The notes under the pieces: generated by a model
Seen by the model: only the letters and a program-made list of their open reading frames with translations
Told to the model about the DNA's origin: nothing
Databases searched by the model: none
Shown: positions 36,086-41,115 of the stretch, one piece after another
Layout: every line of letters begins with the position of its first letter
Numbering within the stretch: position 1 is the stretch's first letter
Sequence record: PX880103.1
DNA from: a phage
Length of the DNA: 64,000 nucleotides
Reading direction: 5' to 3' (one strand)
Translations under genes and position numbers: made by a program

Positions 36086-37410
36086 TTGATTTCCTCTAAA
36101 TCTTTGGTGTATTCAGTAACTACATCAGTAGTTTTCCAATATTCGTTTTCTTCTTTTTTAGCTTTAGCTTCTTCAGCAAGTTTCTTTGCTTCATCGGAAG
36201 TCATATGAAAAATATTCATTCCAACTAGTTTATCAACATAAGAAGAATACATATCGATTTTCGAAAGTTCTTCGGTCAGTTCTTTACGAGTTTTACCCTG
36301 TACAACAATTTCACCTGAAATTACTTTCTTAATGAAATGTGCCTTGGCAAAGGCTAAACGAAAAGCTGACTCAGTTTCTTTAATTTTGTTATCAATTCGT
36401 TTTTGGACATAAGTTTTACGAACTTCAACAAAGTCTTTAATTAAATCAACTACGTTATCGTAAACTTGTAGTTTTCCTTTCTCATTAATAACCGTAATAT
36501 TCTGAGAACGACGCTCAATCAACCCGAAGTCTTTCATAATTTTTGCATGGCGTTCTTCTTCGTTATCGCTCAAAGAGTATTCTTTGCGGAATTTAACTTT
36601 GAAGCCAAAACCATGCTCACCACAAGCATCATCCCATGTAATGAAGCCTTTATCTTCAAGTGGGTCTAAGATTTTACTCACATAAGTTTCACGATCATAC
36701 TTGTACGGAATCTCAGTGATATGCATTTGAGTTCGTGAAGTAAACTTATATGTTCCACGAATTTCATATTGCCCATCAATTTCAACGACTTCACCGCGAA
36801 ATTCTGGGAATTCTACCTTCGGTTTAGTTACTTTCTTTCCTTGAAGAGCTTGCAGTACAGCTTTCTTGACAGAAGAAACACTATGAGGAAGAATGTAAGT
36901 TGCATAACCAGTTGCAATACCGGAAACGCCATTAAGAAGAACAGTAGGAATAATAGGCAAATAGAAAGCAGGCGGAATGTGTTCTTTATCTTGATGTACC
37001 GGAGCATATTCAGTATCTTTATATACGTTATAGAAATTTTTACTTACACGAGCAAAAATATAACGACTTGCTGCTGCTTTTTGAACGGTACGAGAACCAA
37101 AGTTTCCTTGACCATCTAACAGAGGAAAGTTATTATTCCAGGTGTTAGCCATCAAAGCGCCCGCATCTTGTGCAGAGTTTTCGCCATGGTGATATCCAAG
37201 GTCCGCTACACCACCTGCGATAGAAGCGAGTTTGTGAAACTTATCTTTATTTCCTCGCGCCAAATCAAGAGCTCGAGCAATAACAAATCGTTGAACTGGC
37301 TTAAATCCATCAATCATATTTGGAATAGCACGATTTTCAACCGTGTACATAGCATAAGCCAATGCTTCATTATCAATGATACTTTTTAAATCGCGATTAT
37401 TCAGTTGCAT
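36082..37410 (-). CDS. 52: gp52 DNA topoisomerase II medium subunit (GyrA-like)
   Basis: 442 aa = T4 gp52 length; topoisomerase breakage-reunion-type motifs; adjacent to motA. Confidence 0.93.
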   Translation of the reverse strand: MQLNNRDLKSIIDNEALAYAMYTVENRAIPNMIDGFKPVQRFVIARALDLARGNKDKFHKLASIAGGVADLGYHHGENSAQDAGALMANTWNNNFPLLDGQGNFGSRTVQKAAASRYIFARVSKNFYNVYKDTEYAPVHQDKEHIPPAFYLPIIPTVLLNGVSGIATGYATYILPHSVSSVKKAVLQALQGKKVTKPKVEFPEFRGEVVEIDGQYEIRGTYKFTSRTQMHITEIPYKYDRETYVSKILDPLEDKGFITWDDACGEHGFGFKVKFRKEYSLSDNEEERHAKIMKDFGLIERRSQNITVINEKGKLQVYDNVVDLIKDFVEVRKTYVQKRIDNKIKETESAFRLAFAKAHFIKKVISGEIVVQGKTRKELTEELSKIDMYSSYVDKLVGMNIFHMTSDEAKKLAEEAKAKKEENEYWKTTDVVTEYTKDLEEIK

Positions 37411-37414
37411 AAAT

Positions 37415-37555
37415 TTACCATACTAGTGAATGTAGTGCCATAATAACATCAGAAATGAAAAGCACGACTTGAATTAATCCGAACATTACTCCATAATATA
37501 GTGCTACCAATAAAGTAGCAAGGGCTAATGAATAGCCCAAGATTTTCTTAATCAT
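37415..37555 (-). CDS. small hydrophobic membrane peptide (46 aa)
   Basis: Hand-translated MIKKILGYSLALATLLVALYYGVMFGLIQVVLFISDVIMALHSLVW. Confidence 0.4.
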   Translation of the reverse strand: MIKKILGYSLALATLLVALYYGVMFGLIQVVLFISDVIMALHSLVW

Positions 37556-37706
37556 TAGTGGATAACAACACAAATGTTAAATATGCACACATACCCTGGG
37601 CTAAAGCTTGTGAAAACACACTGCTAGCATCGATACAGATAGTTAAAACACATGCTACTATCCAACAAATAAATGAAATAACTCCTAATAATTTTGCGAT
37701 ATTCAT
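37548..37706 (-). CDS. ac: small membrane protein (52 aa), candidate Ac (acridine sensitivity) equivalent
   Basis: Hand-translated MNIAKLLGVISFICWIVACVLTICIDASSVFSQALAQGMCAYLTFVLLSTND; size and position between 52 and stp fit T4 ac (from memory). Confidence 0.4.
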   Translation of the reverse strand: MNIAKLLGVISFICWIVACVLTICIDASSVFSQALAQGMCAYLTFVLLSTND

Positions 37707-37713
37707 ATTTTCC

Positions 37714-37794
37714 TCACTGACGTCCGAATACGCCTTTGGTTTTAAGATTGTTACGATAGAACTGCATCACATGTTCGTTATGGAAATTACTCAT
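37714..37794 (-). CDS. stp: Stp peptide (activator of host PrrC anticodon nuclease)
   Basis: 26-codon [29 protein letters not shown], identical to the T4 Stp peptide as I recall it; TAATG overlap with the ndd stop. Confidence 0.8.
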
Positions 37795-38249
37795 TAATAT
37801 GCCTGTAAAACAAATTTAAAGTTATCAGCCAACATACGATTCATTTCTTCAAGTGTTTGATACTCAGAATGATGATTACGAGTAAACGCCAAAGCTAACT
37901 GACCTTTTCCAAATCCCGTCGTTAGAGGTTTCATCTTAGAAGCAGGCAAATAAAACACTGTGTATGGAACATTGTTATTTGCAATAGTACGCGCAAGTTG
38001 AGACCGGCGTTGACGAATATGACTTAAAACCGCACTGAATCCTTGCTTAGAACGCTGATTACCTACATAAAATCGTGCAGATACGCATGGATTACTAAAT
38101 GGACCACCGAGTTTACTCACTAAAAAGTAAAATCCAGGTTTAGACAAAATGTCTTTGTGCGGAGTTCCCAAAAACCACTCACCACCCTTGATTGTACCAA
38201 TAACAGTAGCGCCTGCATTATTCAGATCAATAACAGTCATATATTTCAT
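37794..38249 (-). CDS. ndd: Ndd nucleoid disruption protein
   Basis: 151 aa from [26 protein letters not shown] (internal ATG; track start is further upstream); matches T4 Ndd as recalled. Confidence 0.88.
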
Positions 38250-38309
38250 ATTAATTTCCTCTAAATTATTTTCTACTCCAAGGCCGCATGAATACACACG
38301 GCCATTAAA

Positions 38310-38525
38310 TTAATCGTCGCAGTCGACGCTCAATTCCCAAAACTCTTCTACAGTATAAGTTTCAGTATCATTTTCAATACAGAAACGTTCATTACTATTG
38401 TTTGCTAAAGTAGCATTAACTGTCATTTTCTCGCTAGTGCTCTTAAGAGGTGAAATACGAATTAACTGATCACCGTTATCTAAACAGAAAATTTCACCAA
38501 CTTTTACATCTTTAAAGATTTTCAT
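38310..38525 (-). CDS. hypothetical protein (ndd.1 position)
   Basis: 71-aa ORF. Confidence 0.5.
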   Translation of the reverse strand: MKIFKDVKVGEIFCLDNGDQLIRISPLKSTSEKMTVNATLANNSNERFCIENDTETYTVEEFWELSVDCDD

Positions 38526-38640
38526 AATTCACCTCAAGGAGTATAAAATCCAAATGCAGTTGTTGACCATCCCATCCAATACGGAAAATTTGCACCGATG
38601 TAAAACACGAGAATATAAAACCAAATACCCAGTAAATTCA

Positions 38641-38838
38641 TCATTTTACACCATTCCAAATTGTTTCAACTACTGATTTTAAACCATTTTGATGAATATC
38701 CATTCCGACTACTGCCATCAAATAGATTCCAACTACAACTGAACCTAGCGCAAAAATCAGCATGAAAATGAATAAAGCCGGAAAAATATTATCGAAAAAC
38801 CATTCCATAAATGTAAAAGCACTGCGTTTACGCTTCAT
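38641..38838 (-). CDS. small membrane protein
   Basis: Track ORF begins with TTG; internal ATG MKRKRSAFTFMEWFF... preferred; hydrophobic core. Confidence 0.45.
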   Translation of the reverse strand: MKRKRSAFTFMEWFFDNIFPALFIFMLIFALGSVVVGIYLMAVVGMDIHQNGLKSVVETIWNGVK

Positions 38839-38845
38839 ATTTTCC

Positions 38846-38959
38846 TCACATAAATCCAAAGTAAACGTTTAACACATCAATCATTAAAACGATTGGGAAT
38901 ATACTCAAAACTATTAGTATTATAACTACATTCCATATAGCTTTAATAATCTTTTTCAT
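38846..38959 (-). CDS. small membrane peptide (37 aa)
   Basis: MKKIIKAIWNVVIILIVLSIFPIVLMIDVLNVYFGFM downstream of an early promoter at ~38965-39010. Confidence 0.4.
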   Translation of the reverse strand: MKKIIKAIWNVVIILIVLSIFPIVLMIDVLNVYFGFM

Positions 38960-38964
38960 TTTCT

Positions 38965-39010
38965 GTTCCTCCGTAGTTGATAGGGTAATAGTACCACGGA
39001 AGAACAGTCT
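38965..39010 (-). promoter_or_regulatory. sigma70-type early promoter
   Basis: Minus-strand GTTTAC and TAnnnT elements (plus: gtagttgatagggtaatagtaccac ... tgtaaacaac). Confidence 0.45.
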
Positions 39011-39308
39011 TGTAAACAACTTTTTTAAAAATATTCGTAATAAATGTGAATACCAACTACTACCGCTGAAACCTGTGCAACCCACCACGCACAAGCAATA
39101 AGTACAGAATTCATAATTTTCATAATAACCTCATTACAAAAGTAAATATTAAACAAATTACTGGAATACTAATTAACCAAACAAAACACCACCACAATGA
39201 ACTCATAGCTCAATCTCAGCGATTTTCATTTCATTCTCCAAATCCGTATCAGTTGATAGTTGTATAGTACCACGGTCCTTGTGGTATGTAAACTGTTTTG
39301 TGAATTTT

Positions 39309-39866
39309 TTAAATGAAAAGATACCATCCATTGTAGTTGCTTTTTCTTACAACCTTACGAAGGTCTTCTCTGTCACCGATGAACTTCGGAGTGTACTGGA
39401 TGACACCTGGATGAATTTCTTTAGTGTTGAATATAATTATACAGTCAGCGACTTGATGATTTAGAATGGGCCCTAGATTTATTCCAGAACCGTATGGATA
39501 CTCTCCGCTGCATCCTGTTGTTACAGAAATCCAACGTGAGTCAGTTTGGTGTGTCTTAACTTCTACACGAAGCCCGCAGTATTTTGGATGTGCTAAAACA
39601 TCCCATGCATATGTGTACGGATCATCGACATCTTCTTGGCCTTTATTGACATACCCGCTTAGCCAATCTGCTACAAAAAATTCTGCGTACACAGCGATAC
39701 GGCATCTTTCGATAACTTCTGCCTTATCCTGATTTGGGTTTTGTTTTAAAGAGTATCTTGCAGTATCAGCAATTTTGGCCTTCATTTCACTAGTCAAGTC
39801 ACTGTTCGATAGGGTAAATGACGGAATCTGAAATAGTCTCTGCAAACCCGGATTCGTTTTCTGCAT
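39309..39866 (-). CDS. denB: endonuclease IV
   Basis: 185 aa = T4 DenB length; position between ndd cluster and rIIB. Confidence 0.85.
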   Translation of the reverse strand: MQKTNPGLQRLFQIPSFTLSNSDLTSEMKAKIADTARYSLKQNPNQDKAEVIERCRIAVYAEFFVADWLSGYVNKGQEDVDDPYTYAWDVLAHPKYCGLRVEVKTHQTDSRWISVTTGCSGEYPYGSGINLGPILNHQVADCIIIFNTKEIHPGVIQYTPKFIGDREDLRKVVRKSNYNGWYLFI

Positions 39867-39953
39867 TTAAACTTTCCTTTTATGTCGGAATCACTGGTAT
39901 TCATATAATAAATCATAATTTCTCTTAAAACAAAAGGGCCGAAGCCCTTTATT

Positions 39954-40148
39954 TTACTTGAATTGTGCAATTCTTTTCTCTAGACATTCAGCATAAGATT
40001 TCATTGAGATAAACTGCGAAAGCAGCAGTTCTTGCTCAACTGCACTAACTGTTAGAAACTTTGCGCTTTCTAAAAATTTACTCAGTGCATTAATTTTGAG
40101 CATTAATTGATCGTATTCTTCTTTTACTCGTGCTTGATAACCTAACAT
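39954..40148 (-). CDS. hypothetical helical protein flanked by near-identical hairpins
   Basis: 64-aa ORF; hairpins aagggccgaagccctt at ~39934-39951 and ~40161-40176. Confidence 0.5.
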   Translation of the reverse strand: MLGYQARVKEEYDQLMLKINALSKFLESAKFLTVSAVEQELLLSQFISMKSYAECLEKRIAQFK

Positions 40149-40176
40149 AATTTTCCTTAGTTAAGGGCCGAAGCCC

Positions 40177-41115
40177 TTATTTAAATTGTTCAGTAACGTC
40201 TTCAACTACTTCATATTGGCAGGTACGCATTTTAGCATCGTTGTAATCAATCGGAATTGATACTACATCGCGAGGATGAACTTTAACTTTTACAACTCGG
40301 CTGGTTGAACTACCAAAGTGACGAATATAAGATTTAGAACACACATGCAGACCACGAGAACAAGTCTGTGTATCATCGTCATTCACACGAGTACGCGGCA
40401 TTTTAACTACTTTACCCGGACTGTTATCAAAGGTATTTGAGTGACAGTCAAAGTAATTGCTACGAACTACTTTCCAAGCATAGAAGTAACCATCTTCTGT
40501 AATTTCAATATCGTTTGCTACCAAGAAATCAAAGAGTCGAGATACCGCTTTTTGGCTTGGGTTTTCCAACAGATTTTCCAAGAACGGAAAATAAAATTCA
40601 AAGTTTTCGCCTTTTTCCATCGAGTCAAGAATACGATCAACCAAACCAGACCGCAATTCAATATTTTGATAGAACAAGCTTCCACCTTCAATTCGAACAT
40701 CGCCGGAAATATATTTTTCAACAGCACGACGAACATTAATTTTTTGTGCCGCTTCTTCCAACTTATCCGCTACAAGCAGATTAAGAATTTCCTGGAAGTT
40801 TGAATGAGTATTAGGAGTTGCGTTATAAGTTACGCCATCAACAGTAATTGAAATGAATTTTTTAGATGCATTCCAAATAATGTCAGATTTAGCAACTGGA
40901 GCAATAACTGCATCGCTATTAACTTTAACTGTAATATCACCGCTAATAGTAACTTTAGGGTGTTTAGCTTCTTCAGCATTTTTCAAAACACGGCGGATTG
41001 TGTCAACCGATACACCTTGCCAATCAGCCAATTCCTGTTGGGTATAATTACCACTTGAATACAGCTTAACAATTTCAGCTTGTTCGTTTTTGGTCAGGCA
41101 TTTAATATTGTACAT
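40177..41115 (-). CDS. rIIB: RIIB
   Basis: 312 aa = T4 RIIB length; directly downstream of rIIA. Confidence 0.92.
   Translation of the reverse strand: MYNIKCLTKNEQAEIVKLYSSGNYTQQELADWQGVSVDTIRRVLKNAEEAKHPKVTISGDITVKVNSDAVIAPVAKSDIIWNASKKFISITVDGVTYNATPNTHSNFQEILNLLVADKLEEAAQKINVRRAVEKYISGDVRIEGGSLFYQNIELRSGLVDRILDSMEKGENFEFYFPFLENLLENPSQKAVSRLFDFLVANDIEITEDGYFYAWKVVRSNYFDCHSNTFDNSPGKVVKMPRTRVNDDDTQTCSRGLHVCSKSYIRHFGSSTSRVVKVKVHPRDVVSIPIDYNDAKMRTCQYEVVEDVTEQFK

Follow-up and report, generated by a model that had tools for sequence, protein, structure and literature searches.

Six conserved micro-protein genes behind two consensus early promoters in the ndd–denB interval of a Tequatrovirus

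The interval between ndd and denB of the phage studied here holds a string of very small open reading frames (ORFs), and the question which this locus raises is whether these ORFs are genes at all and, if so, what such short and mostly hydrophobic products would do for an infecting phage. The question was addressed for positions 38310–39300 (minus strand) of a stretch of phage DNA of 64,000 nucleotides (PX880103.1), the whole of which is referred to as the window. An earlier note on this DNA had described tiny ORFs packed between the two genes, a description which holds, as six minus-strand ORFs of 28–71 aa are present. The window shares ~95–97% identity with T4, and as the best record over 20 kb is only ~95% identical to it, the window was taken as a distinct Tequatrovirus. 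Megablast against 50,697 phage records returned 568 records matching the query 37700–39900, which as a whole aligns to T4 at 96.5% with the same gene order. From 37400 to 41100 every gene lies on the minus strand, the flanking ORFs being those of gp52 (442-aa topoisomerase subunit), Ac (52 aa), the Stp peptide (26 aa), Ndd (151 aa), DenB (185 aa), DenB.1 and RIIB. At exactly the same ndd–denB position the T4 reference AF158101.6 carries ndd.1, ndd.2, ndd.2a, ndd.3, ndd.4, ndd.5 and ndd.6, and tblastn against the T4 products revealed all six ORFs to be 89–100% identical over their full length, with order, strand and both promoters being the same as well. Each ORF furthermore matches a PHROG family (1e-16 to 1e-38), all of these families being without assigned function. 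By sequence and position the six ORFs are thus identified as the orthologues of T4 ndd.1, ndd.2, ndd.2a+ndd.3, ndd.4, ndd.5 and ndd.6, and no paralogue of any ndd.x family was found elsewhere in the 64-kb window. The cluster is therefore already known, as the annotation of T4 has included both its genes and its early promoters for about 30 years, and it represents no novel type of element; what is gained is the support for six frames as real genes and a corrected gene model. For comparison, 44 loci were used, comprising the window and 43 relatives (T4 records, other Tequatrovirus genomes and Ndd-anchored IMG/VR contigs), and the gene order was colinear in 43 of them.

The first step towards an answer concerns transcription. 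Two early promoters had been proposed for the interval, and both exist with 0 mismatches to the consensus; the extent given for one of them (39250–39295) is right, but that given for the other (38965–39010) is displaced by a few bases and leaves the -35 box incompletely covered. The T4 early consensus used, GTTTAC-N14-gtggTAttaT, is quoted in the annotation of a relative and has the class form GTTTAC-N14-GTGGTAnnAT; allowing for up to two mismatches it identified 15 sites across the window, every one of them on the minus strand, as compared to 0.51 expected from shuffles. The promoter at 39264..39293 (minus strand), which is also picked up by a generic sigma-70 scan, lies upstream of ndd.6 and ndd.5, and that at 38988..39017 (minus strand) lies upstream of ndd.4, starting 7 nt past the ndd.5 stop; both consist of the -35 box GTTTAC and the extended -10 box GTGGTACTAT. 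In the T4 record X75802.1 from the 1990s a promoter with its -35 and -10 boxes is annotated at both equivalent positions, and the equivalent of the second one is also annotated in phage SA20RB. By consensus, both sites belong to the T4 early (sigma-70, Alt-enhanced) promoter class, and from the identity of the promoters with those of T4 we infer early transcription in the present phage. The suggestion that each gene group possesses an early promoter of its own is borne out by the consensus sites at 39293–39264 and 39017–38988, and two transcription units would result. Unit 1 would lead from promoter 39293–39264 through an 8-codon leader ORF, ndd.6 and ndd.5, which are joined by ATGA overlaps; unit 2 would lead from promoter 39017–38988 through ndd.4, a 65-aa DUF7248 gene, ndd.2 and ndd.1, and its transcript is assumed probably to extend into ndd. 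Between ndd.1 and ndd an RNA hairpin with a 9-bp stem (38282..38303, minus strand; stem_loop in X75802.1) was identified, which has a folding energy of -16.8 kcal/mol (z = -3.7) and is followed by GGAG, not by a U-run. The terminator scan returned no terminator-like hairpin beside either promoter, the nearest hairpins being those at 38282–38303 and 39933–39950, and both promoters were consequently regarded as bare and not as complete PeSLs. The locus hence resembles the PeSL cassettes (PMC2839356, PMC4122927) in that its small accessory genes lie between repeated cassettes with an early promoter, but differs from them in that the stem-loop adjacent to the promoter is absent. GGAG motifs of the RegB type were considered likewise; three are found on the coding strand (in the Shine-Dalgarno (SD) sequence of the leader ORF, in that of ndd.4 and downstream of the hairpin), and as ~3 are expected by chance from composition, no claim is made for them.

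Within unit 1, sequence and junctions delineate the leader ORF MKIAEIEL (39203..39229, minus strand), which is preceded by the SD sequence GGAG and which sequence comparison identifies as the remnant of an 87-aa gene (phrog_2390) found in most relatives. Of this gene it retains the SD sequence, the start and the six 3'-terminal codons, the in-frame deletion being common to T4 and the window; the 87-aa ORF, ending ...NSNEMKIAEIEL, is present in teqhad, SA20RB and several contigs. Other relatives possess a 68-aa ORF at this site, or both the 68-aa and the 87-aa ORF, and at least four states of the denB–ndd.6 junction occur among the relatives. A 42-aa ORF at 39203–39331, which spans the promoter and overlaps the denB 3' end, was rejected as a gene, as it has no SD sequence and is merely an upstream extension of the 87-aa frame in relatives. 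The start of the ndd.6 orthologue (39120..39206, minus strand; phrog_8851, 4.6e-16) overlaps the stop of the leader ORF (ATGA). Its product of 28 aa (MSSLWWCFVWLISIPVICLIFTFVMRLL), with one predicted hydrophobic helix, is 96% identical to T4 Ndd.6; the frame is intact in 20/22 Tequatrovirus loci, and the motif SKxWCxxW..IP persists in distant genera. The start of the ndd.5 orthologue (39025..39123, minus strand; phrog_5011, 9.4e-26) in turn overlaps the ndd.6 stop (ATGA) and its SD sequence GAGG is located within ndd.6; the product of 32 aa, likewise with one predicted hydrophobic helix, is 97% identical to T4 Ndd.5.

Unit 2 begins with the ndd.4 orthologue (38846..38959, minus strand; SD sequence GGAGGA; phrog_3098, 5.2e-21), the product of which (37 aa, MKKIIKAIWN...MID...) shows 100% identity with its T4 counterpart over 37 aa. 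Its start is assigned by sequence to the MKK codons and not to that of the 42-aa T4 model, which is doubted because its upstream ATG reads ACG in the window and lacks an SD sequence. Ndd.4 is the most widely retained family, and across genera the motif MKK-x2-KAIWN ... ID is found, with the Asp being invariant and located at the end of the predicted helix. The next gene is a 65-aa ORF (38641..38838, minus strand; SD sequence GAGGA; PF23906, phrog_2401), which corresponds to ndd.3 plus ndd.2a of the T4 reference, where it is split in two. The encoded protein possesses a basic N-terminus, one predicted transmembrane helix and a C-terminal GLKSVVETIWNG motif, and residues 5–63, hence nearly the whole protein, match Pfam DUF7248 (PF23906; 73.4 bits versus a gathering cut-off of 27, E = 1.4e-20), a family without known function. 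Across genera the motif GLKSVVE-x-IWNG is recognisable, of which GLK...G is invariant. The T4 reference lacks one G in codon 2 of this gene (ATGAA-CGT versus ATGAAGCGT), the intact 198-nt ORF was found in two independently sequenced T4 stocks, and in the HIDEN-SEQ annotation 'ndd.3' measures 82 nt, which is not divisible by three (bioRxiv 10.1101/2025.11.20.689424). Given the intact ORF of the re-sequenced stocks and the length of 'ndd.3', the split of the T4 reference most likely results from a sequencing error of the 1990s. The ndd.2 orthologue (38534..38644, minus strand; phrog_4135, 9e-23) encodes an aromatic-rich, uncharged product of 36 aa, 89–92% identical to T4 and relatives, with the motif GxNxPYWxG being kept in distant genera. 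The stop of the 65-aa ORF and the start of ndd.2 overlap; a second ATG at 38641 yields 35 aa, the first ATG reads ATA in 6 loci, and the product is probably that of 35 aa. Last in the unit is the ndd.1 orthologue (38310..38525, minus strand; SD sequence GAGGTGA; phrog_2183, 2.7e-38), which encodes an acidic and, as judged from its hydropathy, soluble protein of 71 aa with 97–100% identity to T4 and relatives. An AlphaFold2 model of Ndd.1, derived from 10 near-identical sequences, reached a mean pLDDT of 42 and was too poor for a fold search. The corrected gene model consequently comprises one 65-aa DUF7248 gene in place of ndd.2a/ndd.3, an ndd.4 of 37 aa and an ndd.2 of probably 35 aa.

Hydrophobic ORFs of this size may arise without being genes, and the idea that those of the cluster are chance ORFs in a T-rich strand between promoter cassettes had to be considered. 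The coding strand consists of 36% T and 31% A, a composition which favours Phe, Leu and Ile codons, gene callers skip several of the ORFs in relatives, and the hydrophobic products are absent from T4 mass spectrometry (PMC9697503). Selection on the frames speaks against this idea. When in-frame pN/pS was pooled over the 22 Tequatrovirus loci, it amounted to 0.06 for the 65-aa ORF (variable sites by codon position 1/2/3: 4/2/26), 0.11 for ndd.5 (3/0/9), 0.11 for ndd.6 (2/1/5), 0.17 for ndd.2 (6/4/15), 0.30 for ndd.1 (35/35/49), for which close pairs gave 0.09, and 0.43 for ndd.4 (6/1/4), for which the values obtained overall were 0.43–0.5; the reference genes ndd and denB gave 0.15 and 0.09, respectively. 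Variable sites thus show a third-position bias and in-frame values are low, as is not the case for the other frames, where pN/pS, as far as computable, was mostly ~0.8–3.6 (overall ~0.4–3.6), except for one ndd.4 off-frame with 0.44, as low as the in-frame 0.43. For ndd.4 the selection signal in close relatives is weak (0.43) and variable sites are few. The frames are intact in 16–22 of 22 loci, whereby six ndd.2 'problems' just shift the start by one codon; in genera with Ndd being only 50–63% identical, and with saturated synonymous sites, the peptides are recognisable and retain their short motifs; and SD sequences and coupled start/stop overlaps are found at the junctions. Frame conservation across related phages, on the lack of which the earlier note would have given up its proposal, was hence found both as in-frame pN/pS of 0.06–0.43 and as motifs shared across genera. 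The reading frames are under purifying selection, all six are real genes, and the chance-ORF reading is essentially excluded, being close to refuted. Broken alleles occur sporadically, which fits non-essential genes: the 65-aa gene carries a stop in a T2 escape mutant, ndd.5 is frameshifted in Pu-Krd-SF5, and sb4 has a stop within ndd.6.

What kind of products these genes encode was approached by hydropathy, taken as the maximum Kyte-Doolittle value of a 17-residue window. Maximum values were 2.65 for ndd.6, 2.18 for ndd.5, 3.38 for ndd.4, 2.82 for ndd.2a/3, 1.85 for ndd.2 and 0.41 for ndd.1. The statement that most of the peptides possess a single transmembrane helix therefore applies to five ORFs (1.85–3.38), each of which encodes one hydrophobic segment of bilayer-spanning length, but not to the 71-aa ORF; Ndd.1, acidic and with a maximum of 0.41, was rejected as a membrane peptide. 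We infer that the five hydrophobic products are single-pass micro-proteins which insert into the inner membrane of the host, and the basic N-termini of Ndd.4 and the DUF7248 protein suggest that their topology is probably N-in, as predicted from hydropathy and the positive-inside rule. Bacteria possess single-helix regulators of ~30–65 aa, such as AcrZ, MgrB, MgtS and KdpF, which bind a larger membrane protein. The Ndd.x peptides are alike to these in size and architecture only, homology being absent, and a shared mode of action may be suggested by analogy. The explanation which we favour, with moderate confidence, is that of an ndd–denB accessory cluster of two immediate-early units encoding independent inner-membrane micro-proteins that tune host envelope physiology. 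Each hydrophobic peptide would act separately, and would either bind to a protein of the host membrane or change the physiology of the envelope or of lipids; its action would be timed to the first minutes of infection and its benefit would be limited to some hosts or conditions.

Homology searches were in line with families that lack a functional assignment. Besides DUF7248, no Pfam match was found for any peptide at E up to 1, NCBIfam and PADLOC gave no significant matches for the peptides, and word-indexed protein searches returned close relatives only. An exhaustive HMMER search of 1.84 billion representatives with the 65-aa protein as query gave 5 matches (2 real phage relatives, 1 fragment and 2 long proteins matching by a hydrophobic/low-complexity stretch only), so that no bacterial homologue and no functional lead was obtained among these representatives. 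A DUF7248-anchored scan of viral contigs, which was of limited sensitivity, recovered only contigs already found via Ndd, the module hence not being seen outside the ndd context.

Published work on T4 provides further data on these genes. The products of ndd.1 to ndd.6 were called unknown by Kutter et al. 2018 (PMC6071114), where the saΔ9 deletion, which spans 52.1 through denB, was reported to reduce the burst to ~50% of wild-type and to abolish the stimulation of phospholipid synthesis that normally follows infection (PMC6071114). In the T4 multi-omics data the RNAs of all ndd.x genes were classed as early, and by mass spectrometry only Ndd.1 was detected (early), with the hydrophobic products being listed as 'NA' (PMC9697503 supplement), a non-detection which is expected for such hydrophobic peptides in T4. 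Knock-down by CRISPRi-ART had no effect on fitness for any ndd.x gene (rating 'Not Fit'; PMC11879866 supplement), and transposon sequencing by HIDEN-SEQ found all ndd.x genes to be non-essential (bioRxiv 10.1101/2025.11.20.689424 supplement). Considering deletion, CRISPRi and transposon sequencing together, T4 can do without the ndd.x genes, singly or as a group, on laboratory E. coli. The role in host takeover or superinfection exclusion which the earlier note had put forward is thus not supported, as three T4 genetic screens gave no phenotype on laboratory hosts and no match to a named family, defence-related ones included, was obtained. What the genes do exemplify is conserved phage 'dark matter', that is, early genes of 28–65 codons which are under purifying selection and which standard proteomics misses when their products are hydrophobic.

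The saΔ9 phenotype allows for a more specific suggestion, according to which one or several of the peptides, with Ndd.4 as best candidate, represent the T4 early factor behind the stimulation of phospholipid/phosphatidylglycerol synthesis after infection. Ndd.4 is favoured for this role on the grounds of its presence in 38/44 T4-like loci and of the invariant Asp at its helix end; it could cooperate with the DUF7248 protein, and the factor would bind to a host inner-membrane enzyme of lipid synthesis or quality control. This suggestion is regarded as rather unlikely; if true, a 50-year-old observation would gain its gene and phage micro-proteins would be seen to retune the membrane composition of the host. 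The same deletion interval includes the T4 genes for Ac and 52.1, and with Ac, gp52.1, Imm and Sp the ndd.x products have in common that they are early, small, predicted to reside in the inner membrane and dispensable in the laboratory. They differ in that phenotypes are known for Imm, Sp and Ac and for none of the ndd.x products, and sequence similarity to Imm, Sp, Ac or gp52.1 was not detected.

This likeness invites the assumption that one or more of the peptides are superinfection-exclusion factors which, as Imm and Sp do, would take up position in the inner membrane soon after infection and keep later phages from delivering their DNA or from using their lysozyme. Early expression and small, predicted membrane-embedded products are consistent with it, and a loss which costs nothing in single-infection laboratory assays is as expected for such factors. 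However, exclusion in T4 is largely explained by imm and sp, and the lack of any Pfam match besides DUF7248 (E up to 1), with NCBIfam and PADLOC likewise yielding none, means that no known exclusion family is represented, which leaves a role in exclusion improbable. Even less probable is that the peptides are membrane-damaging toxins of the type I toxin or holin-like kind, which would depolarise the host to stop its metabolism. In size and hydrophobicity they are akin to small pore-forming peptides, but they match no toxin or holin family, knock-down or disruption neither aids nor hurts T4, and early depolarisation would be expected to starve the phage's own development.

The presence of the genes varies among the loci. 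Among the 44 loci, Ndd.4 was found in 38, Ndd.6 in 28, the DUF7248 protein in 25, Ndd.1 in 22, Ndd.2 in 21 and Ndd.5 in 12, the latter being restricted to Tequatrovirus loci among those compared, and 12 presence/absence patterns were observed. Some lineages carry Ndd.4 alone, and in others DUF7248 or Ndd.2 is absent independently. An obligate complex of Ndd.4, DUF7248 and Ndd.2 was therefore rejected, as Ndd.4 was found in 15 loci that lack DUF7248 and in 17 that lack Ndd.2, and DUF7248 in 10 that lack Ndd.2. Among the examples of promoter-cassette shuffling given by Comeau et al. 2014 is 'ndd.4/.5 in T4 versus ORF268/269 in PST' (PMC4122927, Fig. 6A), and the mosaic gain and loss seen here matches independent accessory modules in a region which recombines at repeated promoter cassettes. 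A mosaic distribution among lineages is also typical of arms-race genes, and together with the variable accessory region in which the cluster neighbours rIIB/rIIA, and with genes dispensable on laboratory strains, it gives some room to the idea that the peptides counteract membrane-acting abortive-infection systems of the host or of prophages, in the manner of rIIA/rIIB versus RexAB. On the other hand, the sequences are conserved and not diversifying within Tequatrovirus (pN/pS 0.06–0.17), a link by PADLOC or to any other family was not obtained, and in one conditional comparison of the HIDEN-SEQ data no ndd.x gene changed (q = 1.0; bioRxiv 10.1101/2025.11.20.689424). Counter-defence is thus considered unlikely, and separate micro-proteins acting on the host envelope are retained as the preferred explanation, with Ndd.4 and the DUF7248 protein being most worth testing due to their persistence across T4-like genera.

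The gene model also touches on annotation. That the genes are under-annotated, as had been stated, is not the case for T4, where all of them are annotated, carry Swiss-Prot-style names ('uncharacterized 8.1 / 4.4 / 4.3 / 5.0 kDa proteins in ndd-denB intergenic region'; AF158101.6, 166101–166996) and belong to PHROG families, but it does apply to relatives, as annotation pipelines usually overlook ndd.6. In ten relatives inspected, ndd.6, although intact in nearly all Tequatrovirus loci, was annotated once, ndd.2 was missed twice, and ndd.4 was overlooked in one and given too long a frame in two. Labels have been carried along as well: the designation of phrog_2401 as 'periplasmic protein' goes back to a localisation prediction of the 2003 era for which the truncated T4 Ndd.2a had been used, and the records of several relatives contain a propagated 'naphthalene 1,2-dioxygenase' label.

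Within the ndd–denB cluster, the 65-aa DUF7248 ORF (38641–38838, minus strand) corresponds to what has been annotated in T4 as two genes, ndd.3 and ndd.2a. Codon 2 of this ORF (window 38836-38838) contains one G that is absent from both the T4 reference AF158101.6 and the 1990s T4 record X75802.1, and the existence of separate ndd.3 and ndd.2a models in T4 is explained by the lack of this G in the reference. A single unbroken 65-aa DUF7248 ORF was identified in the window, in all other relatives and in the re-sequenced T4 stocks MT984581 and OZ209023. Among the compared loci, inactivating changes were found to be sporadic, each hitting single members of the ndd cluster: in the T2 escape mutant PV648364.1 the 65-aa gene carries a stop at codon 45, in phage Pu-Krd-SF5 ndd.5 is frameshifted, and ndd.6 has a stop in phage sb4 and a frameshift at its end in one IMG/VR contig.

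For two further members of the cluster the start codon was reconsidered. The T4 reference gives Ndd.4 as a 42-aa protein (MEEQKMKK...) starting from an upstream ATG, whereas in the window (38960-38974, minus strand) the respective codon is ACG and the Shine-Dalgarno (SD) sequence GGAGGA is positioned for the MKK start; hence, the conserved Ndd.4 product is 37 aa long. The first ATG of ndd.2 (window 38641-38644, minus strand) is replaced by ATA in 6 of 22 relatives, so that the real start is probably the second ATG, yielding a 35-aa product; the overlap or abutment of this start with the stop codon of the 65-aa gene is retained. In ten relatives' genomes the GenBank annotation of the ndd.1–ndd.6 cluster was found to vary: ndd.6 is called in only one, ndd.2 is overlooked in two, and ndd.4 is overlooked in one (RB10) and stretched to 243 nt in two. 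Several GenBank records label Ndd, Ndd.1, Ndd.2 or Ndd.4 as 'naphthalene 1,2-dioxygenase', and the labels 'outer membrane' and 'periplasmic' on cluster products are old localisation guesses.

Upstream of ndd.6 resides an 8-codon ORF, MKIAEIEL (39203-39229, minus strand), which possesses its own SD and is coupled to ndd.6 by an ATGA overlap. This ORF is what an in-frame deletion has left of an 87-aa gene (phrog_2390), which most relatives in Tequatrovirus and Dhakavirus possess in full. The denB–ndd.6 junction occurs in at least four states, i.e., empty, with the 87-aa ORF, with a 68-aa ORF or with both ORFs. In some distant relatives (compared loci L027-L029, L039 at about 2575-2907, and L035) a 41–45-aa zinc-ribbon-like ORF with the pattern CxxC...HxxC is inserted among the membrane peptides (example: MTIKRIFTCYECGKQINRLL...NYAHAECLMKKK).

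The T4 early-promoter consensus was matched 15 times in the 64-kb window as compared to ~0.5 expected matches, and all 15 (e.g., 3739, 6912, 18227, 35847, 43544 and 48721) locate to the minus strand, so that the whole window is an early, leftward-transcribed region. Similar leaders following early promoters of unrelated genes are documented by the CRISPRi-ART guide tables, with imm.1/ndd.6 and nrdC.8/ndd.4 as like pairs (PMC11879866).

Between ndd.1 and ndd, a stable RNA hairpin (38282-38303, minus strand) with a 9-bp stem (-16.8 kcal/mol, z = -3.7) was identified, for which X75802.1 has a stem_loop annotation. Downstream of this hairpin comes GGAG instead of a U-run; processing, stability or weak termination are its candidate roles. 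Further upstream, denB.1 is flanked by two near-identical GC-rich hairpins (39933-39950 and 40162-40179, core GGGCCGAAGCCC), the former of which looks like a terminator whichever strand is read.
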